Position numbers and translations under genes: made by a program
In this document: positions 47,213-60,894 of the stretch, piece after piece
Numbering within the stretch: the first letter of the stretch is position 1
How the letters are laid out: each line of letters opens with the position of its first letter
IMG/VR virus record: IMGVR_UViG_3300042893_000684
Span: 1-64,000 of that record
Origin: a virus
DNA length: 64,000 bases
Strand: one strand, 5' to 3'
Notes under the pieces: model-generated
What the model was told of the DNA's origin: nothing
Database searches by the model: none
Seen by the model: the letters and a program-made list of their open reading frames with translations, nothing else

Positions 47213-47950
47213 ATGGCACAAAATATTGGTAATGCTAGAAATATTCTTGTCGGTGCGTCTCCACTGTTTCTTTCAGTAACAGACATCACCAGCCCAGATT
47301 ATGTAGTTTCTGCACCAGCAGGAACACTAAACGCATTTGCAGCAAACAAGAATAAGACAGTCCCAGCATTTAAAACAGGAGAGTCTTACACAGATTCTTT
47401 GAACAAGGTTGATGTTACAACAGCAGCAACTGGTGCGGTATCACCAGCCCTTGACACAAAGGGTGCATTTTACCGTAACGTAGGTTACACAAATAACGGT
47501 CTTCAGGTTACATACAACCCATCATACGGTTCAGTAACAGTAGATCAGCTTCTTGATACAGCAAAGCTTTTCAAGGAGTCAATGGAAGTTATGATCGCAA
47601 CAGAAATGGCAGAAGGTACTCTTGAGAACGTTCTTGCCGTATTTGGTCAGAAGTCAGATACACTTACAGATTCTGGTAAGAAGCTAGGTATCGCAGGTGG
47701 AGCTCTTGGTGAAGCACCAACAGAGCGTCAGCTAATTGCAGTTGGTCAAGCACCAACTTCAACAACAGATACTGCAACTGAGCGTGTATATTATGCACGT
47801 CGTGTTCTTTCTGTACAACAGTCACAGTTCTCTTTGGCTCGTAACGCAGCATCAACATTCCCAGTAACATTCCGTTTGCTACCATCAGGTGATTCATCAC
47901 ACGTAGGTCAGGAATATGGTTTCATCGTAGACCGTGTTCTATCAGTGTAA
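47213..47950 (+). CDS. Major tail tube protein
   Basis: NI.VGA, VGYT..G....Y.P....VDQ, E.TLEN, FPVTFRLLP; high-expression codons; followed by a terminator. Confidence 0.85.
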   Translation: MAQNIGNARNILVGASPLFLSVTDITSPDYVVSAPAGTLNAFAANKNKTVPAFKTGESYTDSLNKVDVTTAATGAVSPALDTKGAFYRNVGYTNNGLQVTYNPSYGSVTVDQLLDTAKLFKESMEVMIATEMAEGTLENVLAVFGQKSDTLTDSGKKLGIAGGALGEAPTERQLIAVGQAPTSTTDTATERVYYARRVLSVQQSQFSLARNAASTFPVTFRLLPSGDSSHVGQEYGFIVDRVLSV

Positions 47951-47968
47951 TTAATTTAATTAATTAAT

Positions 47969-47998
47969 AGAGCCCCCCAAGAAATTGGGGGGTTTTCT
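47969..47998 (+). terminator. Intrinsic terminator
   Basis: GCCCCCCAA-GAAA-TTGGGGGGT followed by TTTCT. Confidence 0.85.
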
Positions 47999-47999
47999 A

Positions 48000-48028
48000 T
48001 TGCTCTTGTATTTTGAATATGATACAAT
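48000..48028 (+). promoter_or_regulatory. Promoter TTGCTC-N17-TACAAT with extended TG
   Basis: Sits immediately after the terminator, ahead of the tail chaperone. Confidence 0.6.
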
Positions 48029-48054
48029 AATTAAGACGATCCTAGGAGGATTAA

Positions 48055-48387
48055 ATGGCAACAACAGTATACGATGTTGAAGAAATTCAACTACAAAATG
48101 GCGCAACAGTTAAGCTCAAGCCTTTAACAATTAAAGAGCTACGTGAGTTTATGAAGGTCATTCAAAGAACACAAGAAGTAACATCAGAAGATGAAACACT
48201 AACAATCCTTATTGAGGCCTGTGGAGTAGCACTAAAAAAGCAGCTTCCAGATCTTGTAGCAGACAAAGACGCATTTGAAGACACACTTGACGTTCCAACC
48301 ATCAATCGCATTCTAGAAGTATGCGGAGGGATTAAGATGGACGACCCAAACCTACTAGCGGCAGCGGTTCTGGCTGGTCAGAACTAG
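48055..48387 (+). CDS. Tail assembly chaperone (gpG-like)
   Basis: Between tail tube and tape measure; LKPLTIK motif. Confidence 0.8.
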   Translation: MATTVYDVEEIQLQNGATVKLKPLTIKELREFMKVIQRTQEVTSEDETLTILIEACGVALKKQLPDLVADKDAFEDTLDVPTINRILEVCGGIKMDDPNLLAAAVLAGQN

Positions 48388-48716
48388 ATCTAGCCGCTTT
48401 AGAGGGGGAAGTATTTCTTCTAGGTAATTGGAAAAATTACGAAGAACTAGAAGATAATCTTTCAATGCCAGAGATGGTCCAGACTTTTAAGTCAATGCAA
48501 AAAACGGAATCAGAAAAAAGGAAATTCCTAGCTTCGATTCAAGGTGTTGATTTAGATGAAAGCAGTAATAATGAGGAGGGATCATCCTTCGAAGATGTCA
48601 GAAGAAGAGCACTTGGTATAACCACATCAGCAGATGATGTTGTTTCATTACAAGGTGGTCTTGCAGCAGAAGCTGGCTTTGGCATTAACGCAGGATTAGG
48701 ATACCGAATAGAGTAA
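48055..48716 (+). CDS. Tail assembly chaperone -1 frameshift product (gpGT-like)
   Basis: In-frame slippery C CCA AAC at 48345-48351; -1 frame open from 48336 to 48716. Confidence 0.75.
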
Positions 48717-48725
48717 CATATACAT

Positions 48726-51700
48726 ATGGCAGATAATTTAATCACCACCAATATTACCGCCAACGCAGACTTCACGAGTTTAAGAACTCAGCTTGCTGCG
48801 GTTACTGCCCAACTCGTAAAATTACAAGAAACAACGGCGGGAACTAACGCCAAACTAGCAAATCAAATTGCTGTAATGAATAAGTCCTTCGCAGAAACTA
48901 TGCGATCAACGGGACAGTTTTCATCACACTTTGTATCGCTTACATCAGACGTAGAAAAATTTGGTAGGAACCTAGATAGAGGAAGACTTAAACTAGGGGA
49001 ATACTACAACGCCTGGAGTGGGCATACAAAGAAAACAAGCAGCCTGATTAGAGACCTGGCCAAGCAGCAGGTAATGCTAGAGAATGCAATCATTCAGCCT
49101 ATCGGCAAAAACGCACAAGGCCTAATGCAATACAATGTTATGGTTGCAAAGGGCCTTGATGAAATAAAGAACAAGACGGCAATTGCAAGACAAGAGCTAT
49201 CTATCATGAATAAGGTAATGCTCGATGGATCTAATCAGCTTATCAATTGGGGTAAGAACACCCAGTGGGCTGGCCGTCAGTTAACAGTAGGACTAACAGT
49301 TCCTCTTGCAGCATTTGGAATGGCTGCACAAAAAGCATTTAGAGAAGCAGATCAAGAGCTTGTAAGACTTACAAAGGTTTACGGCGGACTAAGTGCAACA
49401 TCATCTTCAGAGCTAGCAAAAGTAAGAAAAGATGTTTCCGAAACAGCAAGAGAAATTGCTGGAGCATACGGAATTGCATACAAAGAAACTATTGCATTAG
49501 CAGCTGACCTTGCTGCAACAGGACAAGAAGGCGGAAACCTTCTAGAAGCTACAAGACAGACAAGCAGACTTTCAATCCTTGGTGAAGTAGACAGACAAGA
49601 AGCAATGAAGGCAACTCTTGCTATTCAAAATGCATTTAAATCAAGTACAGATGAATTAACTCAATCTATTGACTTTCTTAACGCTGTTGAAAACCAGACA
49701 TCCACTTCTCTACAAGATTTAGTTGAAGCAATCCCTAAAGCAGGCCCTGTTGTAAAGTCTTTAGGTGGAGATGTAAAAGATTTAGCATTGTATTTAACTG
49801 CAATGAAAGAAGGCGGAGTAAACGCATCAGAAGGTGCTAACGCAATTAAGTCAGCAATGGCATCTCTTATCAACCCAACAAAGGTTGCAAAGGAAATGTT
49901 TTTTGGCTTTGGTATAGATATAGATAAGATTGTAACATCTAATGCGGGAAATTTAACTGAAACAATTACAGACCTTCAAGCAGCTTTAGACAGACTAGAT
50001 CCACTAAGCAAGTCAAGAGCAATTGAACAGTTGTTTGGTAAGTTCCAGTATGCAAGAATGTCAGCCCTATTTGAAAACCTAGGTAAAGAAGGATCTCAAA
50101 CTCTTCAGGTAATGGATTTAATGAAAGCAAGCGCTACAGATCTTGCAAATATCTCTGCTCGAGAATTAACTATGATGACAGAGTCCGCTTCAGGACAATT
50201 TAAAAGAGCATGGGCTTCAGTCCAAGCAGACCTTGCTTCAGTAGGAGAACAATTTTTAAGAATTAGCACAAAGGTTTTAAATGTAGTAGATGGGATCATT
50301 AAGTTTTTCCAAGGACTTCCAGGTCCAGTTAAAACATTCCTTAACGCTCTTGGTGGACTAACAGCATTTGCTGGACCACTAATTATGTTAACTGGTGTTA
50401 TGGCCAACTTTATTGGTTATGTTACAAAGGGAATATTCTCTTTAAGACAAATGGCTACAGGAGGACATGGGTTTAAGCTCCTTACTCCAGAAATATTAGC
50501 GGCAGATGCAGCAGCAAAAGGTCTTGCTACATCATTCTATTCAGATACAGAAGCAACAGTTGTATTAACAAATGCAGTAAATACTCTTGCAGCATCATTT
50601 GATAATCTTCAGGTAGCAGCATCTACAGCGCAAGTTGCAGTGCAACCAAGCATCTCAACAGTTGCAGGCGGAGTAATTGCAGCGGGAACTCCAGGCGGAA
50701 CGCCAAGATATGTTGATAAAAATAATCCATTAATTGGAGATTCATACTCAAGAGATATGTCTCACATGATTCCTGCTCAAACACAACAGGCGGGGACAAT
50801 ATTTGGAACAGTTCCAGGAGCAGGACCAGTAAACGTTAGAATTGGTAAAAACCCTCAAGCATATATGAACGCAGATCTTCCAAAGATTCCAGGTGTTACA
50901 TCTGTAAACGGAACATCGACTGGTATAGTTGCTCAAGAGGCAGCAAAGTGGCATGCAATGACAGCGGCAATTGCAATGCAATCAGAAGCAGAACTTAAAG
51001 TATTAAAGGCAGAGGTAAATGCTACAGGAACAATTACATCAAGTCTATCTAATTCTTATCAAGCCTTGCTTCCAGAATTTTCAGAAATTACAAGCATGGC
51101 TGCACAAGAAACTGCTTTAATCGTTAAGCAGCTACAGCAAAGCAAAATAACAGCAGACGAAGCAAGAATAAAAGTAATTCAATTAAATGCAACAGTTGAA
51201 GCAATGCTTGCTGAGACAGCTCAAAAGATTGCAGCTGGACAAGGAAGATCTGTAAACTTAACAACAGTTCCATTAACATCTCAACCTGTAGTAGACCCAG
51301 TAACTGGTAAATCAAATATGAAAGAAATGTTTCATAAGGGTTCTACAAAAACATTAGTAGATAAAATTGCTAGAGCGCTAGGCGGAGTTAGAACTTCAGG
51401 TGCAGGATATAACATTGAAACAACAAAGCCTAAGTTTAATAAAGGCGGAATAGTTCCAGGAACTGGTAACACAGACACCTATCATACAATGGCCGAGCCC
51501 GAATCATTTGTAATTAATAAAGCTGCAACACAAAGAAACATGCCTACAATTAGCAAACTTATTGGTGGCACTCCAACATTTAGAAACACTGGAGGAATGG
51601 TTCCAGTAGTTTTAACTCCTGGAGAAGCAGTAATTCCAGCAAAAATTGCTAAGCGTAATCCAGAACTAATGTTGCAATTAAATGGTGGCCCAGGTAATAC

Positions 51701-54700
51701 AACTGGTATGGGAAGACATCAAGGCGGAGGAGTTCACCCACACCCTCATGCAGGAAAGCCTATGACAGATGCTCAATACAGAAGAGCTCTTAAAATGTAT
51801 TATGAATTTATTAACGATCCAAACTATGAAGCCAATGTTCGTGCAAGATTTATTGCACTAGATGCTTCAGAGTATTTGGGAGTTGCCCCACAGATAGGAA
51901 CTAAAAAAGCTATTGAAATAGCTACTGCTAATTTTGATGCTGCTAAGGACCTTAATGGATCTCCCGAAGACTGGATTAAAACTAGAACAGCACAGCTTGC
52001 TGCTTTTGACGAAAAATATTCTATGGGAGACAAAAGATTAGTAAAAGAAGGAAGAAGCGCAACGGCTTCTGGTTTAACTAGCGATAACTTTTTAAATAGA
52101 AATATGAACAGGGTTTTAAGATCAATGAGCAGAAACCCATTATTTGCAGAAGCTCATGAAGATTTAAAGTCAATACCTAGAGCAACTGGTAAAATACAAG
52201 GCGGCGGAGGAAGATTAGTTGAAACTGCTAGAGGCCACGCATTTAGAAGATCTTTAATAGCACAACTAGGTGGAGTTGGCTCAAGAGGATTTGCAGGATT
52301 TGCTGCTATTATGCCTGCAGCATTTAATACAATTGCTGCACAACTTCAGGGCAAAAATTTTCAACCAGATGTAATTCATTTAAAGAGGGCAAGTGCAATT
52401 GCTGACTTTGAAGAAATGGTAAGAAAATCTGGAGTCCCTGGAAGCGTAGACGATGTAATACAAGCATTACAGTATGATACAAGATTTGTAGCTGCATCAG
52501 ACAAGAAACCACGAGTTGCTCCTCCATCACCAAAACAAAAAACTGCACTCAACATGTTTTTGCAAGCAATCTCTGCAGGAAAAGCTTGGATTCCAATTCG
52601 TGGAAAACTTGCTCTTGCAGGAGCGGTTAAATTAAATAAGGGTGGACAAGTACCAGGAAAGTTTGCACAAAGATTGTTTGGCGGCGGTAAAGCGTTGTTC
52701 TTAGGAATGCCAAGATCTATTAAGCAGGTTGAAGCCCAGAGAGCCGCAAAGGTTGCTATGGAAAAAGCAAGTCAAGCAGTTAAAGACTCTAGATTTAGCA
52801 AGACCCCAGTAACTGATTATGACGCTATGCTAGAGCCAACATCAGGAAGAAGTTTCCCAGTATCTGGAATTGGTGGAGTTTATAGCAAGAACGGGGAAAA
52901 GGTTTTTGTTAAGCCAGTACTAGATGAAAAAGCAGCGCTTGCTGAGATAAGAGCAACTGAAATTGCTCGTGATGTTCACGGACTACAAACACCTAATCAA
53001 AGAGTTGTTGTAATGAGAGACCCAACTGACAGAAGAGGATCTAGAACACTACTAGCTTTAGAGTCTAAGTACAATCCTGCTATAGCAAATCAAGATGGTA
53101 AATTTACAGAAGATCAATACTTTAGACAGTTAGTTGCATCATCATTACGTGGCGACAAAGATTTAGGCAGGGGTAACCTTTCTGGGAACATACTTGCCGA
53201 TGTAGGTCCAGCTGGGGTATTTTCAACAGCCTCTGGACCAAGAGATTATTCTGCAACAATGCCTTCATTTAAACAACAAGCAATGATCAACTTGCTTGGA
53301 GTAAAAGGAAGCAGTACAAAGAAATTCTTTGCTGAAGCAACTTCAGATATTCCAAGAGGTATGACACCTGATCAATACAATGATCGCATGCTGCAAGAAA
53401 TTGAATCTGCTCTCCCAAAGCTAAAACAAACAATAGGTAGATTTGATTTAAACACAGAAGAAAAAGTTATTTACAATGCAATGATCACAAGACTATCTGA
53501 TGCAAGAAGACAAACTTACAGAGATTTGCATGGAGTTCATTCATCAGTAACAATGTCTCCAGAAAAAACAATGACTCCAGCAGCAATTGCCAAAATGCTT
53601 GCAGCAGATGAATTGAAGCGCAGACAAAAGGGTCACTCTGTAAGCCTATCTGATAATGCATTTAAGACACCAGAAAATGGATTCAATATTGGCGGATTAA
53701 TTGGAAACGTTCTTAAGGGTAAAGCAATGCATAGAATTGGTGCAGGATTTGGCCCAACTGGAGCACCTAAGCCAAGTATGTATGAGTCAGCTCCATGGGG
53801 CGTGAACTCTCTATCTATTGAAATGGCCGACAAGCTATTTGCAAACACAGGTTTAAGAAAGCATACTCAAAAATTATTCTATGACAAGTTTGCGGCAGCA
53901 CTAGCAAAAGAAAAACCTTACGGATATGTAAAGATGCCAGATGGTAAATTAAAGAACGGACTCGAGCCAGACGTGCTAGACTCTGTAATAAGATCAGCCG
54001 CTTCAGATCTTGTTGGAGACAGAAACATAATTAAACAACTTTCTCCAATTGATAAAGATATTTTGCGAAACAAATATTTAAATTGGGATTCTAAAAAAGA
54101 TACTCCGCTTACAGAATCTTTAAAGAAAATTATATTTGGTTTAGAAAAAAGAGAAATGGGCGGACCAGTTAACGCAGGTCAACCATACGTTGTGGGAGAA
54201 AAAGGACCAGAGCTATTTGTACCTAGAAATTCAGGAGGCATTGTTCCAAACGGATACATGAAGGGCGGAAACATTGCAATGCTTGGAGCCTCACTAGCAC
54301 CAATGCTAATTGCGAGCAAGATTACTAATCCTTTACTTCAAACAATAATGCAGACGCTTTCATTTATCATACCTCAAATGATGATGACGGCAATGATGCA
54401 GACAAAAGCTGAAGGCGCACAAGGAAGAGTCGGTGGACTTATGTCTAAGATTCCAGCTTCTGCAAAAACTCCTATATTCTCTACAGCAAGAGGGACAAAA
54501 GTTGCTGGTGAAATGTTGGAAGATGGAACATACGCCAAGGGCGGAAGAATGCTCAATAGATACGGCGCAGCTCTTCAGAATTCTGCCAAGAGCGGGAGCG
54601 CAGTAACAAGAACCCTGGGAAGAATTGGAATGGGTCTTACAAGATTAAATGTAGGACTTGCTGTAGCAACAGGAGCTTTTATTCTTATCAATAAAAGAAT

Positions 54701-57032
54701 AAGGGATCACAACGAACATTTAAGAGTTGGGGTAACACAATACGGACTAACAGAAGAAGCTGCCAAAAAGGCGGGACTTAAGTTTACTGATTACAACTCA
54801 AAGCTTGCAGATACTGTTAAAAACATAGAAGCAATACGAGAAAGAAATCAGTTCCTTTATGAAAGCATGCAAGATGCTGGACTTCCTATATCCATGACAA
54901 TTGAAGAGTATAAGAAGCTTAAGAAGGAAGTTAAGGAAGTATATACTGATCAAATTAAATTAATTAATCAGTCTAAAGAAAGTGAACTTCCACAAGTAGC
55001 AATAGACATTAAGACTGCTCTAATGGCTGCTGGGTTATCAGCAGATGAAGCAAGCAAGAAGATATTTACAATGTTTAAGCTTTCTGAAAAGGGAGAAAAG
55101 GCTGGTGCATTTACTGTAGGTAATCGTGCATTTAGAAATATTAAAACAGGACAAGATGCAGCCGAGGCTGCAATAAACACTTATACTACTGCCTCAGATG
55201 GTAAAGAGAAAGCACAGGCAGTAAATACAGGTCTAACTGCTATCGATGCAGGAATCATTGATATGATTGAGCAAAGTAAAAAAGCTGCTAGAGAAGACAA
55301 GAGTGGAAATACAAAAGTATTAACTCAGTATCAAGCCCAAGAAGCAATGCTTCAAAAACTAAATAAGCTAGAATCTTCTAAAGCTGTTCTTACTGCAAAA
55401 ACTAGAGCGGAAATGATTAAGCAGAATCCAGAACTTAAAAAGATTATTAATCCTATGGATACAATAGTTAGCTTATTTGAAAAGATGAATCTTGCAGCAA
55501 AGGGATTTACTGGAGATCTTTCAAAGTTAGGCGCTGAGGCTGTATCTACACTATCAAAAGTTGCAGATTCCATATCAGAAGCAACCGTTGCTGCGAACAA
55601 AGAGGGTCTATTAAAACAACAGTACATAGATTTAAAGAAGCTAACAGATCAACAAAAGGCATTAATGCAAGCGGCCAAAGGACAAACTGCTCAGCAACAA
55701 ATAAACACTAGAGAGCAGCTAAAGGGTTTGCAAAAGCAAATAGATGCTAATAATAAACTTGCAGAGTCAAGACTAAAAGCATTAGATGCAGCAAAGCAAG
55801 AGGGCGATATTGCAAGACAAATTGCAAAAGCACAAGCAGCATACGAAGCAGCTTTAGCAACAGGCAATACTGCTGCAGCACAACAAGCAAGCTTAGATAT
55901 TCAAGGTCTGCAATCAGATCAGCAATACAACTCTCAAAAGAAAGCAATTGAAGATGCTCTTAAGCTAGCCAATGCTCCTCTTGAGGCTAAGATAAAATTA
56001 ATTAATGACGGACAACAAAAGATGTCAGACAATGCATCAATTGCTGCAGAAAAATTGGGCTCATTAAATGCAAGGATTGATAAGCAAAAACAAAAGATTG
56101 ATGATGTTAATCAAGCAATGGTCACCTTAGCACTAAATGCAGCTGCTGCAGGAAAAAGTATAGAGGATTATATTAAGTTTGGAACTGATGAAGACCCAAA
56201 TGCTGGTAGAGAGGCTGCTGCAGGCCTTGTTGGAGCAGTAAGAACAGCAAAGCCTGGAACAGTTCCTGAATTTAAACAACCAACTCATCCAAAGGGTGTT
56301 AAAACTCCAATTGATGTAGGTACCCAAGCCCTGGGAATAATGGGCGGGGTAGAAGGAGCTATTACAAAAGGATTAGCCTCAAAGGGTATTCAAATGGGCA
56401 GCGGAGATATTATTATTAATGGAAAGAAGATGGATGTTGGCCAATCAAATGCTACTGCTAAGATTAGTTCTGTTCCTACAACTTTAGGCGTAACCGCTGG
56501 AGCCTATGCAGGATCTACAATTATTCATCCATCTACACTTATGGCAGCAGGAGCATCTCAAATATCTGATGGCAAACGAGGCTCTACTTGGGTTGGTGTT
56601 GAGTTTGTAGATAAAAATGGTAAAAAGTGGAAGGTAACTTCTGATGCAGGGAGAGCTGGTCTTAACGTTCAAGCAGTAAAAGCTGGTTACGGAACAATGA
56701 AGCTTAATCCAAATGTTCCTACTATTGTCGGAGACCGTGGACCAGAAATGGCATTTGGCGGAATGGTTATTCCTAATATGGCTAAGGTACCATATGCTTC
56801 ACCTAGATACGATATTAAGCAAGCAGCAAAAATGTTTGAACCAATGCGTGATTCAGGGGTAGGACAAGGTGTAATTAATTATACACAACATATTCATGCC
56901 TCTCCAGGAATGAATGAGGATCAATTAATAAGTAAAGCAAAGGTTGCAGCATATGAATTCTTGCAGGCCAATATAAAAACTAATGCTAAAATGAAGGGCA
57001 ACCCAATGAATGTAGGTATTAAAAACACATGA
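48726..57032 (+). CDS. Tape measure protein with internal globular cargo domains (2768 aa)
   Basis: N-terminal TP901-type core (LTVGLTVPL, EN.TS.SL.DL.EAIPKAG); central non-helical region with xxxGG motifs and a kinase-like domain; VGE.GPE motifs. Confidence 0.9.
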   Translation: MADNLITTNITANADFTSLRTQLAAVTAQLVKLQETTAGTNAKLANQIAVMNKSFAETMRSTGQFSSHFVSLTSDVEKFGRNLDRGRLKLGEYYNAWSGHTKKTSSLIRDLAKQQVMLENAIIQPIGKNAQGLMQYNVMVAKGLDEIKNKTAIARQELSIMNKVMLDGSNQLINWGKNTQWAGRQLTVGLTVPLAAFGMAAQKAFREADQELVRLTKVYGGLSATSSSELAKVRKDVSETAREIAGAYGIAYKETIALAADLAATGQEGGNLLEATRQTSRLSILGEVDRQEAMKATLAIQNAFKSSTDELTQSIDFLNAVENQTSTSLQDLVEAIPKAGPVVKSLGGDVKDLALYLTAMKEGGVNASEGANAIKSAMASLINPTKVAKEMFFGFGIDIDKIVTSNAGNLTETITDLQAALDRLDPLSKSRAIEQLFGKFQYARMSALFENLGKEGSQTLQVMDLMKASATDLANISARELTMMTESASGQFKRAWASVQADLASVGEQFLRISTKVLNVVDGIIKFFQGLPGPVKTFLNALGGLTAFAGPLIMLTGVMANFIGYVTKGIFSLRQMATGGHGFKLLTPEILAADAAAKGLATSFYSDTEATVVLTNAVNTLAASFDNLQVAASTAQVAVQPSISTVAGGVIAAGTPGGTPRYVDKNNPLIGDSYSRDMSHMIPAQTQQAGTIFGTVPGAGPVNVRIGKNPQAYMNADLPKIPGVTSVNGTSTGIVAQEAAKWHAMTAAIAMQSEAELKVLKAEVNATGTITSSLSNSYQALLPEFSEITSMAAQETALIVKQLQQSKITADEARIKVIQLNATVEAMLAETAQKIAAGQGRSVNLTTVPLTSQPVVDPVTGKSNMKEMFHKGSTKTLVDKIARALGGVRTSGAGYNIETTKPKFNKGGIVPGTGNTDTYHTMAEPESFVINKAATQRNMPTISKLIGGTPTFRNTGGMVPVVLTPGEAVIPAKIAKRNPELMLQLNGGPGNTTGMGRHQGGGVHPHPHAGKPMTDAQYRRALKMYYEFINDPNYEANVRARFIALDASEYLGVAPQIGTKKAIEIATANFDAAKDLNGSPEDWIKTRTAQLAAFDEKYSMGDKRLVKEGRSATASGLTSDNFLNRNMNRVLRSMSRNPLFAEAHEDLKSIPRATGKIQGGGGRLVETARGHAFRRSLIAQLGGVGSRGFAGFAAIMPAAFNTIAAQLQGKNFQPDVIHLKRASAIADFEEMVRKSGVPGSVDDVIQALQYDTRFVAASDKKPRVAPPSPKQKTALNMFLQAISAGKAWIPIRGKLALAGAVKLNKGGQVPGKFAQRLFGGGKALFLGMPRSIKQVEAQRAAKVAMEKASQAVKDSRFSKTPVTDYDAMLEPTSGRSFPVSGIGGVYSKNGEKVFVKPVLDEKAALAEIRATEIARDVHGLQTPNQRVVVMRDPTDRRGSRTLLALESKYNPAIANQDGKFTEDQYFRQLVASSLRGDKDLGRGNLSGNILADVGPAGVFSTASGPRDYSATMPSFKQQAMINLLGVKGSSTKKFFAEATSDIPRGMTPDQYNDRMLQEIESALPKLKQTIGRFDLNTEEKVIYNAMITRLSDARRQTYRDLHGVHSSVTMSPEKTMTPAAIAKMLAADELKRRQKGHSVSLSDNAFKTPENGFNIGGLIGNVLKGKAMHRIGAGFGPTGAPKPSMYESAPWGVNSLSIEMADKLFANTGLRKHTQKLFYDKFAAALAKEKPYGYVKMPDGKLKNGLEPDVLDSVIRSAASDLVGDRNIIKQLSPIDKDILRNKYLNWDSKKDTPLTESLKKIIFGLEKREMGGPVNAGQPYVVGEKGPELFVPRNSGGIVPNGYMKGGNIAMLGASLAPMLIASKITNPLLQTIMQTLSFIIPQMMMTAMMQTKAEGAQGRVGGLMSKIPASAKTPIFSTARGTKVAGEMLEDGTYAKGGRMLNRYGAALQNSAKSGSAVTRTLGRIGMGLTRLNVGLAVATGAFILINKRIRDHNEHLRVGVTQYGLTEEAAKKAGLKFTDYNSKLADTVKNIEAIRERNQFLYESMQDAGLPISMTIEEYKKLKKEVKEVYTDQIKLINQSKESELPQVAIDIKTALMAAGLSADEASKKIFTMFKLSEKGEKAGAFTVGNRAFRNIKTGQDAAEAAINTYTTASDGKEKAQAVNTGLTAIDAGIIDMIEQSKKAAREDKSGNTKVLTQYQAQEAMLQKLNKLESSKAVLTAKTRAEMIKQNPELKKIINPMDTIVSLFEKMNLAAKGFTGDLSKLGAEAVSTLSKVADSISEATVAANKEGLLKQQYIDLKKLTDQQKALMQAAKGQTAQQQINTREQLKGLQKQIDANNKLAESRLKALDAAKQEGDIARQIAKAQAAYEAALATGNTAAAQQASLDIQGLQSDQQYNSQKKAIEDALKLANAPLEAKIKLINDGQQKMSDNASIAAEKLGSLNARIDKQKQKIDDVNQAMVTLALNAAAAGKSIEDYIKFGTDEDPNAGREAAAGLVGAVRTAKPGTVPEFKQPTHPKGVKTPIDVGTQALGIMGGVEGAITKGLASKGIQMGSGDIIINGKKMDVGQSNATAKISSVPTTLGVTAGAYAGSTIIHPSTLMAAGASQISDGKRGSTWVGVEFVDKNGKKWKVTSDAGRAGLNVQAVKAGYGTMKLNPNVPTIVGDRGPEMAFGGMVIPNMAKVPYASPRYDIKQAAKMFEPMRDSGVGQGVINYTQHIHASPGMNEDQLISKAKVAAYEFLQANIKTNAKMKGNPMNVGIKNT

Positions 57033-57496
57033 GCTATCCAATGACACTCCCAGTAGGTTCCCTATTATATTTTGATACAGGAACTGACCTTGTAAACCCA
57101 ACATGGACAAAGGTCTCTGAGCACAACAGATCTAGCGCCTCTCTAGAAATAGATAGAATAGAAAAGACTCAAAGAATGTCTAACGGATCCCTTAGAAAAA
57201 TTTGGATTGCAGATAAGAAACAATTTAGCGCAAGCTGGGGAATGCTGCCAACTGATAATACAATGACAGTAGACGGAGGCATGGGCGCCTCAGAAATTAA
57301 ATCTTTTTATTTAAATAAAGGCAAGGGTGCCTTCAAGGTAAAGATATCATACAACGGAGTAGCGGCTAGAGATGAAATTATTTTAATGTCATTTACCTCA
57401 TGTAATTTTACAGTTATGAAAAGAAACGTTAAGTCTTCTTCAGCTTCCGTCCCACAAGAATTTTGGGACGTCTCTCTCTCCTTAGAAGAGGTATAA
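57029..57496 (+). CDS. Distal tail (Dit-like) protein
   Basis: Follows the tape measure; RM.NG.LR....K..F..SW..LP; W.VSLSLEEV. Confidence 0.65.
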   Translation: MSYPMTLPVGSLLYFDTGTDLVNPTWTKVSEHNRSSASLEIDRIEKTQRMSNGSLRKIWIADKKQFSASWGMLPTDNTMTVDGGMGASEIKSFYLNKGKGAFKVKISYNGVAARDEIILMSFTSCNFTVMKRNVKSSSASVPQEFWDVSLSLEEV

Positions 57497-60400
57497 TGAT
57501 ACAGGTATCAGCAAATACAACGAATGCCTTAAGCAAGGCCGTAAACGTATCTGTAACTAACGGATGTCGTGTTGAGTATAATATGAACGACCTAATATCA
57601 GGAGTGGCTGTAACAGCCCCTGAAGGCGTTATAACAGCAACCCTGACTGCTCCACAGAATCAAGGCGGATATCAATATAAGCCTTTTGAAAAGCTATTTC
57701 CAATAAAAAGCATTATTGATCCAAGACGCCCAAAGGTAGCTGGGATTCAATATATGATTGCAGCAGACCCAAGCCTTAGCACAACACTTGCTGCTAGTGG
57801 GTCAGCAGATGGTAAAACATATGCGGCGGCAAAGGAATTAAATAAAAGACTATATTTTTCTGGAATAAAAACTGCTTATAAATATTGGGTAACCCCAAAG
57901 GCAGCAAGCGGAAGTACCTCTTTAACAAATTGTATATTAACTGTTTCATACCCAGCAGTAAAAACTGCTGCAGCAAATAAAATTGTTCTTAAGTTTGAAA
58001 CATCTCACTCCAAACCTACATCCTGGAACGTAAAACTTTTAAGTCTATCTGGAGTAGAGTCTACAATATATACAGGAACAACTTGCCCAGATAACGGAAT
58101 AGTAAACTTATACTACAACGGATCGGCTTGGGTAGACGTAGAACCTGCAACCGTTTCTACAGGGGTAGACCTAAGCGGGTTGAAGTTACAAGTTAATAGT
58201 ATAAGTACTGCAGGCGGGTACCTAGGAATAATTGAAATATCAGCAAGACTAGTAAAGGATGTAACAGACATTCTTCAATCATTTGATATATCTCAGAACT
58301 CATCAGACTCAATCAATGGCTTAGTCCCAGTTGGAGATGTAACAGCAAACTATTTAAGACTTAGTTTAAATGCATACGATAAGTCCTATGACAATTATGA
58401 TAAGACTAAAGCTTTTAATAAAAACAAATTAAGCCTTTATGAAAACATTACAATTAGACCACACGTTATAGTTGAATCAGAAAAAATTAATCTAGGTGTT
58501 TTTTACCTTGACTCATATGAGGTAGATGAATTTGGAGAAGTTTCTATTAATGCATTAGATGGGGCAAGAGAACTTCAGTATATTAAGCCACCAGATATTG
58601 TAACAAAGGACATGTCCACAGTTGCTATAATCAGAAGACTGTTAGATTCAGTTGGATTTTCCAATTATAAATTTAATCTAGTAGATACCGATACCTCTAT
58701 TGTTGCTCCCTACTACTGGTACACCGATCCTCAAAAGACAGTTTGGCAGCACATACAAGATTTATGTAAGGACACTCAGATGATTGCTGTTTTTGACAAC
58801 AACGATGTTCTGCAATTTTATCCAAGAGGATATATATTTAATACAGCAAAAAACCCAGACGCTTCTTTTAGATATAGCAATACAGCAGATGGAAAGCTAG
58901 CAAACATATCAGGAATATCAATTGAAAATGTTCCATCAGTAAAAGCTATTAAAGTTATGTATAGCCCACAGCTTACATCTAATTATGATGGAGATGCCGA
59001 CAACCTTTATACTTCCCCAGTAGTCACACTTGGATCAGCAGCACTAATGGCTGATTTGCCAAAGGTTGCTACAGCAGAAACAGATGCACCAAAGGGAGTA
59101 ATTAAATTAAGGCCAGTAGAAATTTCAGGAGCCGCACAGCAATTTTATTCCTACACAGGGTATTTAGTTTTAGGAAAAGAAATTATTGAGTATGACGCTA
59201 TTAAGTTTGTTTATGAGCCAGTTTCAGGAAGCCCAGCCGTTGCGTATAAGTGGATAAAGAATGAATCAGACATACAGTCTAACTTAGGTCTTGCTAAGCC
59301 TAACACCTTTAGGCCAACAGGCGAGTATAGAATTAAAGAAAGAAATGTTTTTAATGCAGTAACTGCCGATGCTGATTTAACACATAGCGCAGATATTGAT
59401 TCCCTAAGAATGGAATGGACGGGACAAAAATGGAACTCAGAGACTGGAAACTTTACTCCTGACAATACTGAATCAGCATTTACTTTAAAAGAAGTTGCTA
59501 TTAAAGATGAGAACGGTAAAGACTTAGCAAATCCAAATAATTTATTTAGTGCCATACCTAGGTCAATGATGACAATTTTTGCCCCGCTGGGAACATTAAA
59601 AGATAGTACACAAGATCCAACCATAAAAGAGCCTGTTCCAAACAAGATATATACTCTTGTAACAACAGATACGGCTAAATATCTTAAGGGGGAAAACTTT
59701 TCGATTGGAACAAATATGTATTTCCCATTGTTAAAGAATTCAAAAGGCGAAGCCACGGGAGAGCAAAGAACAATTTCGGGTATAGCATTTTCATTAAACT
59801 CAACTAACAAAAGTGGTTATTTTTTATCAGTAGCAACAACCCAAAACACAAGTGCAGATAAAGGATTTAGAGAACTTTCATTTTACAAAATTGTAGACGG
59901 AAAACTTATTAAGATGACTGACTCACAAAAAGAAGAAGACGGTAGTATCTTGACAGGAATAAGTGGAGGAAGACTATATAGAATAGATATCCGTGCAAAT
60001 TATTCTGTACCTACAGGAGGATCCGCTAAAGTTTTAACTTTAAGAATATCTATTAATAACAAAGAGTTTATTGTGGTAGACCAGTCTCCAATAACAATTA
60101 CAGAAAAAATTGGAATTGCTTCCCTTCAAGGGGTATCAGCATTTGACTATGTTTATGCTTCTGCTATAGATGAATCAGACTTTACTGCTGATAAAAAATA
60201 TAATCCTTACAAAGGATTTATGGGCGGAGAGTCTACAATTATTAAAACATTCGGAGAGTTTATTTTTAATCAAAAGGGACAAACCGAAAGCACCTCGTGG
60301 GTCAGAGAGTTTGGTCCAGTTGCAAGAGAACTTAAAAAGATTACAGCTAGGTATACTACTCCAGGCTTTCCGCTTTACCCAAGCCTAGTAAATAATCCAG

Positions 60401-60894
60401 ATGTAACAATTGCTGGAACCTCAATAGATTCTTTTGGAATGGACATCTATGTAATAAACAACACTGGAACATTTACGGATCTTGCTAATAGCGAAGAGAA
60501 ACAGTTTGTCGTGGTTGGCAACTATATCGTGCCTTCAGATCCATTTGAATATATTGACCCAGCACTTACAGATGAAGAAAAAAAGGAAATTGTAGGCTTT
60601 GACTCCACATGGATTCAGAGGGAGTCAGAAGCAATTGAGCTATCTAAGTTTATGACAAAGCAGTGGTCTAAGCAGCAAAAGGTTGTCACACTAGAAACAT
60701 TTTTTAATCCCCTAATACAAATAGGAGATATTGTGGAAATTTCTTACCCAGATAATGGACTATATTCTTCTGAAAACTCAACAATACCCGCTGGGTTTCA
60801 GGCTAATAAATTTGTTGTTCTGTCTATTGATAGTACCTACGATAAAGATTCTCCGCCTACAACAAACATAGCTTGTAGGTCAATTTATACATGA
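57496..60894 (+). CDS. Tail tip/baseplate hub protein
   Basis: Start reassigned to the TAATG overlap; NPLIQIGDIV.I.Y C-terminal motif; synteny. Confidence 0.65.
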   Translation: MIQVSANTTNALSKAVNVSVTNGCRVEYNMNDLISGVAVTAPEGVITATLTAPQNQGGYQYKPFEKLFPIKSIIDPRRPKVAGIQYMIAADPSLSTTLAASGSADGKTYAAAKELNKRLYFSGIKTAYKYWVTPKAASGSTSLTNCILTVSYPAVKTAAANKIVLKFETSHSKPTSWNVKLLSLSGVESTIYTGTTCPDNGIVNLYYNGSAWVDVEPATVSTGVDLSGLKLQVNSISTAGGYLGIIEISARLVKDVTDILQSFDISQNSSDSINGLVPVGDVTANYLRLSLNAYDKSYDNYDKTKAFNKNKLSLYENITIRPHVIVESEKINLGVFYLDSYEVDEFGEVSINALDGARELQYIKPPDIVTKDMSTVAIIRRLLDSVGFSNYKFNLVDTDTSIVAPYYWYTDPQKTVWQHIQDLCKDTQMIAVFDNNDVLQFYPRGYIFNTAKNPDASFRYSNTADGKLANISGISIENVPSVKAIKVMYSPQLTSNYDGDADNLYTSPVVTLGSAALMADLPKVATAETDAPKGVIKLRPVEISGAAQQFYSYTGYLVLGKEIIEYDAIKFVYEPVSGSPAVAYKWIKNESDIQSNLGLAKPNTFRPTGEYRIKERNVFNAVTADADLTHSADIDSLRMEWTGQKWNSETGNFTPDNTESAFTLKEVAIKDENGKDLANPNNLFSAIPRSMMTIFAPLGTLKDSTQDPTIKEPVPNKIYTLVTTDTAKYLKGENFSIGTNMYFPLLKNSKGEATGEQRTISGIAFSLNSTNKSGYFLSVATTQNTSADKGFRELSFYKIVDGKLIKMTDSQKEEDGSILTGISGGRLYRIDIRANYSVPTGGSAKVLTLRISINNKEFIVVDQSPITITEKIGIASLQGVSAFDYVYASAIDESDFTADKKYNPYKGFMGGESTIIKTFGEFIFNQKGQTESTSWVREFGPVARELKKITARYTTPGFPLYPSLVNNPDVTIAGTSIDSFGMDIYVINNTGTFTDLANSEEKQFVVVGNYIVPSDPFEYIDPALTDEEKKEIVGFDSTWIQRESEAIELSKFMTKQWSKQQKVVTLETFFNPLIQIGDIVEISYPDNGLYSSENSTIPAGFQANKFVVLSIDSTYDKDSPPTTNIACRSIYT

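Follow-up and report, generated by a model that had tools for sequence, protein, structure and literature searches.

The window analysed here comprises 64,000 nucleotides (positions 1 to 64,000) of the 104-kb IMG/VR virus record IMGVR_UViG_3300042893_000684, which is estimated to be 96% complete. It contains a gene for a tape measure protein (TMP) of 2768 amino acids, whose middle part is punctuated by short xxxGG motifs. Residues 904-1940 of this protein (nucleotides 51435-54545) had been read in a preliminary description as a polyprotein, in which repeated motifs separate cargo domains. By its family matches and gene order the open reading frame is a lambda/TP901-type TMP within a normal siphovirus tail module. 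Besides containing a PhageMin_Tail domain (Table 1), the protein matches PHROG tape-measure families from residue 1 to about residue 850 (E values down to 3e-116), and the gene lies between a tail chaperone-like pair and minor tail genes, downstream of a putative major tail protein, which is the usual siphovirus synteny. Only residues 1-670 show identity (about 32%) to the TMPs of Streptomyces and Gordonia phages. For the middle region no blastn or tblastn match was obtained among 50,697 phage records, and a PDB sequence search with residues 890-1990 gave no match. A search limited to the middle region yielded 630 homologues; nearly all of the 120 listed have a length of 2650-3190 amino acids, and most relatives of the TMP fall between about 2650 and 2800.

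All eight glycine motifs of the preliminary description were found in the translation at the residues claimed (FNKGG at 904, RNTGG at 953, RHQGG at 997, LNKGG at 1303, FNIGG at 1653, REMGG at 1809, YMKGG at 1844 and YAKGG at 1936), together with the companion motifs PESFVINKAA (926), LTPGEAVIP (963) and VVGEKGPE (1822). Compared to shuffled sequences the motifs are strongly enriched: N.GG.[VI]P was seen 4 times (0.004 expected), GG.[VI]P also 4 times (0.11 expected) and [FLRY]..GG 12 times (3.8 expected). The excess is not a composition effect. In an alignment of 115 full-length relatives seven of the eight sites show 100% conservation of the GG pair; the exception is YAKGG, for which glycine is found in only 21-31% of the relatives. 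Thus seven motifs of the list stand, while YAKGG has to be dropped from it; further copies to be added are NSGG-IVP at residue 1835 and a terminal GDRGPE...GG-MVIP at residues 2667-2685. Judged by sequence, the multiplied unit has the form F/L-N-x-G-G-x-V-P-G with GE-x-GPE or PGE-x-V companions.

A motif pair of this kind is present in the TMP of phage lambda. In gpH (NC_001416) a glycine-rich hydrophobic stretch (residues 691-722) is followed by FATGG-FTGTGG...PAGIVHRGEFVFTKEAT and then by YATGG-YVGTPG, and residues 733-790 of gpH (FATGG...GEFVFTKEAT...YATGG) show the same motif pair in the same order as residues 904-980 of the TMP. The cluster at residues 1809-1848, which includes the VVGEKGPE copy, matches phrog_1538 near the C-terminal end of the profile (positions 708-755 of 811). 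On these comparisons the repeated motifs are extra copies of, and homologous to, the C-terminal glycine motif of lambda gpH. The proposed multiplication of a lambda-type motif is borne out by the order FxxGG...GE-F-V...xxxGG, which gpH shares. Lambda gpH is cut in its glycine-rich part close to the C-terminus, yielding gpH* as well as gpHC, a fragment of about 14 kDa, which remains attached to the hub protein; cleavage site and mechanism are unknown (PMC12617516). T5 pb2 is cut after R1127, which frees its peptidase domain (PMC10038345). Because this processing of gpH and pb2 is documented in the literature, the premise that had been taken as established, a lambda-type motif in TMPs that are processed and ejected, is sound.

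Table 1 Features of the TMP gene and its surroundings (positions in the window)
Feature	Residues	Position	Strand	Evidence
Ig-domain protein and two small open reading frames (upstream)		47213..48716	+	major tail protein / tail chaperones by position
Tape measure protein gene, 2768 aa	1-2768	48726..57032	+	open reading frame; PF10145 and PHROG TMP families
PhageMin_Tail (PF10145) domain	239-438	49440..50039	+	94.5 bits (cut-off 33.2), E 1e-26
First hydrophobic segment	537-566	50334..50423	+	Kyte-Doolittle scan
Lambda-type motif pair, FNKGG-IVPGTGNTD...PESFVINKAA, then RNTGG-MVPVVLTPGEAVIP	904-980	51435..51665	+	conservation; lambda gpH motif order
Left slot junction (LNGGPGNT..GRxxGG), ends RHQGG	985-1001	51678..51728	+	conserved until GG, then identity collapse; pLDDT <50
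Block A, hypervariable cassette slot, type 2 of main family	1002-1302	51729..52631	+	identity profile, types, model
Right slot junction (xNxGG-x-[VI]PG-xFAQRLFGG)	1303-1320	52632..52685	+	linkage minimum 0.10-0.17 at residues 1301-1311 (LNKGG); pLDDT <50
Block B, atypical protein-kinase-like domain	confident core 1338-1623	52686..53681	+	model, fold matches, catalytic residues
FNIGG junction	1653-1657	53682..53696	+	GG 100%; linkage minimum 0.16-0.24 at residues 1661-1681
Block C, conserved, fold unassigned	1658-1808	53697..54149	+	identity 0.76-0.97; dN/dS 0.01-0.16
Junction cluster: REMGG, VVGEKGPELFVP, NSGGIVP, YMKGG	1809-1848	54150..54269	+	GG 100%; linkage minimum 0.09-0.10 at residues 1831-1841 (NSGG/YMKGG)
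Variable Gly/Met-rich hydrophobic region	1849-1995	54270..54710	+	contains YAKGG; hydrophobic segment at residues 1970-1988
Ala/Gln/Lys-rich region	2000-2480	54723..56165	+	one linkage block with C-terminal end, rho 0.6-0.8
Terminal GE/D-x-GPE...GG-x-V-IP copy	2667-2685	56724..56780	+	sequence, enrichment, conservation
155-aa protein and 1143-aa minor tail protein (downstream)		57029..60894	+	phrog_10359, E 2.7e-74

The motifs bracket three blocks, here called A, B and C, of 301, about 345 and 151 residues. Two AlphaFold2 models were built with family alignments; the motifs at residues 904 and 953 lie outside the modelled range. Block A was predicted as a helical bundle (predicted template modelling score, pTM, 0.67), block B as an alpha/beta domain with a predicted local distance difference test score (pLDDT) of 80-95, and block C with moderate confidence; none of them resembles a coiled coil. 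In size and predicted folding the blocks agree with the three globular-looking regions of about 300, 345 and 150 residues postulated earlier. The motif-bearing stretches (residues 985-1009, 1289-1334, 1629-1700 and 1801-1849) have pLDDT values below 50, and the four motif linkers covered by the models lie in stretches of predicted disorder. Pfam and NCBIfam searches with each block, with 21 variants of block A and with six whole relatives returned only PF10145, plus two matches in one longer relative (see below).

Block A is the variable part of the protein. Its identity to relatives is 0.13-0.32, compared to 0.7-0.95 in the flanks (residues 1-1000 and 1301-1840), and the drop from about 0.8 to about 0.2 occurs right at the GG, in GRxxGG at the left and in xNxGG at the right border. 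In the DNA alignment similarity breaks off directly after the GG codons. This slot is occupied by at least ten cassette types, 222-312 amino acids in size. Among 664 pairs whose flanks are identical to 90% or more, the cassettes are less than 35% identical in 440, and in 27 pairs with flanks below 80% identity the cassettes are more than 80% identical; cassette identity is thus uncoupled from flank identity. The correlation between cassette type and the C-terminal, tip-proximal part of the TMP is also low (rho ≤0.28). Within a cassette type the ratio of nonsynonymous to synonymous substitution rates (dN/dS) is 0.03-0.46, which equals purifying selection, and R1041 and H1171 are invariant, D1046 nearly so. 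A diversity-generating retroelement was considered as the source of the variation and rejected, since no reverse transcriptase was found and the variants differ by indels and whole-family replacement.

Profile-profile comparison grouped eight of the types into one diverged family, while types 7 and 8 show no relationship either to this family or with one another (<2% probability). By this comparison the slot holds at least three unrelated protein families. Most of the types, however, fall into the single diverged family, which is restricted to this TMP lineage; they do not form an assortment of unrelated effectors. In a profile search of 1.84 billion representatives the main family was represented by only 20 clusters, nearly all of them giant proteins matching at about residues 1020-1300; the few short or offset hits resemble fragments. 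The model of the main family had no Foldseek match with E <0.5, a best VIA-wide Z score of 3.9 and no PDB match, and received an Atlas score of 0.88 with low recognition. A His-Me nuclease (RGH...N) is one possible reading: both H1171 and N1201 are invariant, though the loop that holds them was modelled with low confidence, and no beta-beta-alpha element was predicted.

Type 7 differs from the main family in having free-standing homologues in other contigs. These are 267-275 amino acids long, share 57-60% identity with the cassette over the full length and have their own start and stop, without GG flanks. Their genomic context comes from one metagenome contig. There, in a phage-like contig (L107:507-1310), the homologue lies beside the gene for a 690-aa protein and near a DNA polymerase gene. 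This homologue matches no Pfam, PHROG or NCBIfam family; its conserved motifs ERSH, GIPIWMT, GHHPFEPW and QPMGPR suggest that it is an enzyme. A scan of viral contigs with the free-standing homologue P0201 alone gave no match. Considering dN/dS, the invariant residues, the unrelated families in one slot and the free-standing homologues, the cassettes appear to be functional proteins.

Block B is predicted to adopt an atypical kinase fold of the PI3/4K-HipA-CotH branch. In VIA-align the model matched CotH (5jda, Z 11.7, root mean square deviation 3.9 over 214 residues), CtkA (3akk, Z 10.6), PI4KII (8a5x, Z 9.5), HipA (Z 9.1) as well as MavQ and LepB-N (Z 8.7-9.1). A total of 34 chains reached Z ≥8, and all listed ones are kinases. 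The leading Foldseek hits are likewise all kinases, with E values of just about 1e-3. According to this structure comparison, which the preliminary description had recommended for each block, block B has a kinase-like enzyme fold. In 54 sequences, among them TMPs of about 50% identity, no variation occurs at residues G1381, G1383, G1384, K1396, E1407, D1477, D1479, N1484 and D1492. Mapped by motif order, without residue-level superposition, they give a complete kinase arrangement: Gly-rich loop, ATP-anchoring Lys, helix-C Glu, the catalytic loop D1477-K-D1479-x4-N1484 and a metal-binding Asp. Phosphotransfer activity may be expected from fold and residues. The Atlas leads are LepB_N, PI3_PI4 and actin-fragmin kinase clusters. 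Its neighbours in BFVD are phage proteins of large size with several domains, which carry annotations as ADP-ribosyltransferase, portal or PI3K/PI4K-domain protein and may be of the polyvalent-protein class. Curated kinase families gave no match, with E up to 10 in Pfam and up to 1 in NCBIfam, and because of this block B is filed as kinase-like by fold and motifs, outside the HipA, CotH and PI3_PI4 families. Its free-standing homologues are only fragments on short contigs.

Exchange at the junctions was followed by a linkage scan, for which pairwise identities in adjacent 40-codon windows were correlated in a codon alignment of 31 TMP genes. The correlation is 0.55-0.87 inside the kinase-like domain and reaches minima at three junctions (Table 1). 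Some relatives carry tandem duplicates of a junction, e.g. NKGGEIEGKFAQGGEIPGKFAQRLFGG and NGYMNGGSVKNGYMKGG; both the right slot junction and the cluster at residues 1809-1848 are affected. Distant TMPs, in which the N-terminal 650 residues are 35-39% identical, carry the kinase-like domain at 45-54% identity. In the relatives L062-L082 it is relocated to other positions (residues 705-1080), without blocks A or C. A relative of 2263 amino acids (L096) consists of the N-terminus, a type 7 cassette and block C, with the kinase-like domain deleted from GG to GG; its junction RNSGG-MIPG-YNLGG-VVGNVLKG is an LNKGG-type motif fused to an FNIGG-type motif. Distant giant TMPs have the full motif form at their C-termini, often in tandem, and one of them (L063) also has the motif on both sides of the kinase module. 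Relocation, GG-to-GG deletion and addition of modules in relatives identify the motif copies as module joints across the whole superfamily. Sequence comparison shows that exchange, insertion and deletion of modules among related phages take place at the linker DNA.

The claim that the motif copies serve as recombination junctions is therefore well founded, as block A breaks at the GG codons, linkage is minimal at the junctions and the kinase-like domain is relocated in distant TMPs and deleted from GG to GG in L096. Alignment of related TMPs, proposed earlier as a check, revealed precise swapping at the GG motifs for block A, which exists in at least ten types, but not for blocks B and C, which are 75-97% conserved in close relatives. 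Among close relatives the notion of swappable cargo blocks thus holds for block A only. In one relative a natural border of the TMP gene after block C was considered (L055:7440-7520) and rejected, as a one-base frame change precedes GG-T-PYIVGEKGPELFVP instead; this frame change at the linker is either an assembly error or slippage.

Taken together, we favour the view, with a probability of about 0.6, that this is a lambda/TP901-type TMP in which multiplied glycine linkers act as module joints, that the modules are injected, and that the kinase-like domain and the cassette act on the host. The arrangement suggests, without proof, a TMP that serves as carrier of injected proteins. Lambda gpH* forms a trans-envelope conduit and is ejected ahead of the DNA (PMC12617516). 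Because TMPs leave the tail before the DNA and enter the host envelope, the modules would reach the cell interior with the very onset of infection. They would probably be unfolded in the tube and refold afterwards. The kinase-like domain could then modify targets of the host or the envelope, and the cassette could meet a variable host partner, e.g. a factor of defence or exclusion or some other polymorphic target. The modules could be released by linker cleavage, which is however not required.

Several points weigh against this interpretation. Close relatives show no swapping of blocks B and C. The main family of block A occurs solely within giant TMPs and in an unchanged position, which fits a scaffold-specific role equally well. 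The blocks match no functional family in Pfam, NCBIfam or PHROG, and activity is read from fold and residues. Arrival of the modules in the cytoplasm and action on host targets are putative steps. Finally, unfolding and refolding have to be assumed, because a folded trimer or hexamer of the kinase-like domain cannot fit into the lumen of the tail tube.

It is possible, if unlikely, that the protein is a true polyprotein, in which the GG linkers are cut by a host or phage protease or by autocatalysis and kinase-like domain, cassette and block C are freed as effectors. Cleavage of gpH in a glycine-rich region next to the same motif and separation of an enzymatic domain from pb2 by cleavage (PMC12617516, PMC10038345) would fit this. 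So would the linkers covered by the models, which are predicted to be disordered and hence accessible, the invariant GG with its conserved flanking positions, and the existence of one cassette family as a stand-alone protein. However, C39 (PF03412) and C48 (PF02902) peptidases are absent from the 104-kb genome, a finding that leaves other proteases and host enzymes in play, and Pfam finds no peptidase domain in the TMP, where absence of a profile match is not proof. For gpH neither the place nor the mechanism of cleavage is known, T5 pb2 is cut behind an Arg and not behind GG, and a function in structure or assembly, or as recombination joint, would account for motif conservation equally well. 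Linker cleavage is plausible by analogy with lambda and T5. A fuller version, which we regard as doubtful, is an injected polyprotein whose linkers are cut at or after ejection, so that free kinase is released into the cell, ahead of all phage gene expression, together with the product of an effector locus that is reloaded by recombination at the linkers. Its polymorphic slot could serve, for example, anti-defence or host takeover and be supplied by genes standing alone in phage genomes.

Alternatively, the modules may be parts of the trans-envelope injection device and not effectors. Block A would then contact a polymorphic inner-membrane or periplasmic partner, or be the target of exclusion or defence sensors, and diversify so as to maintain or avoid this contact; the kinase-like domain would have a role in assembly, with virion proteins as targets like those of CotH, or would modify lipids of the traversed membrane. 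Dependence of a TMP on a host membrane protein and exclusion proteins that target TMPs are known from HK97 and TP-J34. The privacy of the main block A family and its constant position agree with such a conduit role, as do the nearest folds, with a spore-coat protein kinase and several lipid kinases among them (CotH, PI4K, MavQ, LepB), and an OmpA peptidoglycan-binding domain in the TMP of a longer relative, which suggests that parts of the protein work in the periplasm. Nevertheless, we consider this improbable: type 7 is also an ordinary free-standing gene outside the tail module, which is hard to square with a purely structural part, unrelated families occupy the same slot, and cassette type is unlinked to the tip-proximal part. 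That the blocks merely add residues for a long tail and vary by neutral drift is highly improbable, in spite of the narrow TMP length and the similar cassette sizes, in view of purifying selection within cassette types that is very strong on blocks B and C, invariant residues of catalytic type, confidently predicted globular folds, a kinase-like domain that in distant TMPs is better conserved than the N-terminus, and a free-standing cassette homologue.

The favoured view, a TMP with exchangeable injected modules, can be set against known systems. With lambda gpH and T5 pb2 the protein shares the gene position, the N-terminal TMP region, the hydrophobic segments and the FxxGG...GE-F-V...xxxGG pair. 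Both are processed near the glycine motif region; here cleavage would be plausible by analogy. Lambda has one motif region near the C-terminus, whereas this TMP has at least eight copies over residues 904-2685 with folded modules between them; it carries a kinase-like domain in place of a muralytic domain, in addition to the hypervariable slot, and has 3.2 times the length of gpH.

Catalytic domains in TMPs are known as such: the mycobacteriophage TM4 TMP contains an embedded peptidoglycan-hydrolase motif. TMPs of this kind, T5 pb2 and others (PMC12617516), likewise have a catalytic domain within the TMP that presumably acts after ejection. They differ in that the fold here is kinase-like, no muralytic domain was detected with Pfam, and the modules are delimited by linkers and exchanged. 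Polyvalent proteins are very large virion-associated chains of conflict-type domains, including kinases, which presumably reach the host along with the DNA, and recombinational variability has been suggested for them; the scaffolds described are MuF, portal, N4-RNAP and primase proteins, and tape measures are not mentioned (Iyer et al. 2017, PMC5512222). The polyvalent-type content of the TMP is one kinase-like domain plus modules without assigned function. Unlike polyvalent proteins, it has no detected MPTase or other peptidase and a single domain with assignable activity.

Polymorphic toxins (CdiA with VENN, Rhs with PxxxxDPxGL) resemble the TMP in a short conserved motif that borders scaffold and recombining hypervariable cassette, and in unrelated families that share one slot. 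In contrast, the slot here is internal (residues 1002-1302 of 2768) with the motif on both sides, the carrier is the core of a phage tail, and toxicity is not implied. A cognate immunity gene was not seen, although no dedicated search was made; the next genes downstream are tail genes. A further parallel is offered by the Streptomyces effectors Sle1 and Sle2, in which a TMP-derived scaffold with diverse exchangeable functional domains is loaded into a tail-like tube and ejected (PMC13277306). These are cargo of a contractile injection system with a C-terminal functional domain, whereas here a bona fide siphovirus TMP has internal slots delimited by GG.

Previously described are muralytic domains within TMPs, the cleavage of gpH and pb2, injected proteins of the polyvalent class, the cassette principle of polymorphic toxins, and effectors of contractile injection systems that derive from TMPs and have exchangeable domains. 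In the literature we found no TMP that carries a kinase, no TMP with an internal hypervariable slot, and no use of the gpH glycine motif as repeated module joint. Should the modules act in the host, a second route of enzyme delivery before gene expression would exist in TMPs besides the head-packaged polyvalent proteins, and kinase and polymorphic cassette would extend a TMP repertoire so far limited to cell-wall hydrolases. In that case the sharply bordered hypervariable slot would indicate a conflict interface, which could reveal a new target of host defence or exclusion. The linkers also mark spots where a TMP tolerates foreign domains, and the multiplied motif offers a natural system for the function of the gpH glycine region and for TMP cleavage sites, of which neither site nor mechanism is known (PMC12617516).

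Block C and the C-terminal part showed further features. In block C pLDDT is moderate for residues 1700-1790 and low for residues 1629-1700. Residues 1658-1700 (53697-53825) are the most conserved stretch of the TMP, with 0.97 identity in 115 relatives (GNVLKGKAMHRIGAGFGPTGAPKPSMYESAPWG...), and yet have a pLDDT of about 30; they may form a binding or membrane-active peptide. PDB matches of two GE-x-GPE regions to designed PPR repeats were discarded as an artefact of summed weak hits. The hydrophobic region at residues 1849-1995 varies in length and sequence among relatives, and at its start the tandem copy number of an NGYMxGG unit changes.

A longer relative of 3894 amino acids (L091; L091:6983-18664) contains an OmpA-family peptidoglycan-binding domain at TMP residues 2681-2774 (E 1.7e-18) and a sub-threshold ABC1 kinase-like match at residues 3121-3159, which suggest that the host is diderm and that the C-terminal third has additional module slots. 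From its composition the Ala/Gln/Lys-rich region is suggested to be helical or coiled-coil. A third variable zone extends over 56166-56585 (residues 2481-2620) and 56586-57029 (C-terminal end), with identities of 0.23-0.45, and is tightly linked to the preceding Ala/Gln-rich region (rho 0.7-0.8). The tip-proximal third of the TMP evolves as a single block apart from the middle modules. Several relatives are 300-1200 amino acids longer in the zone 56166-57029.

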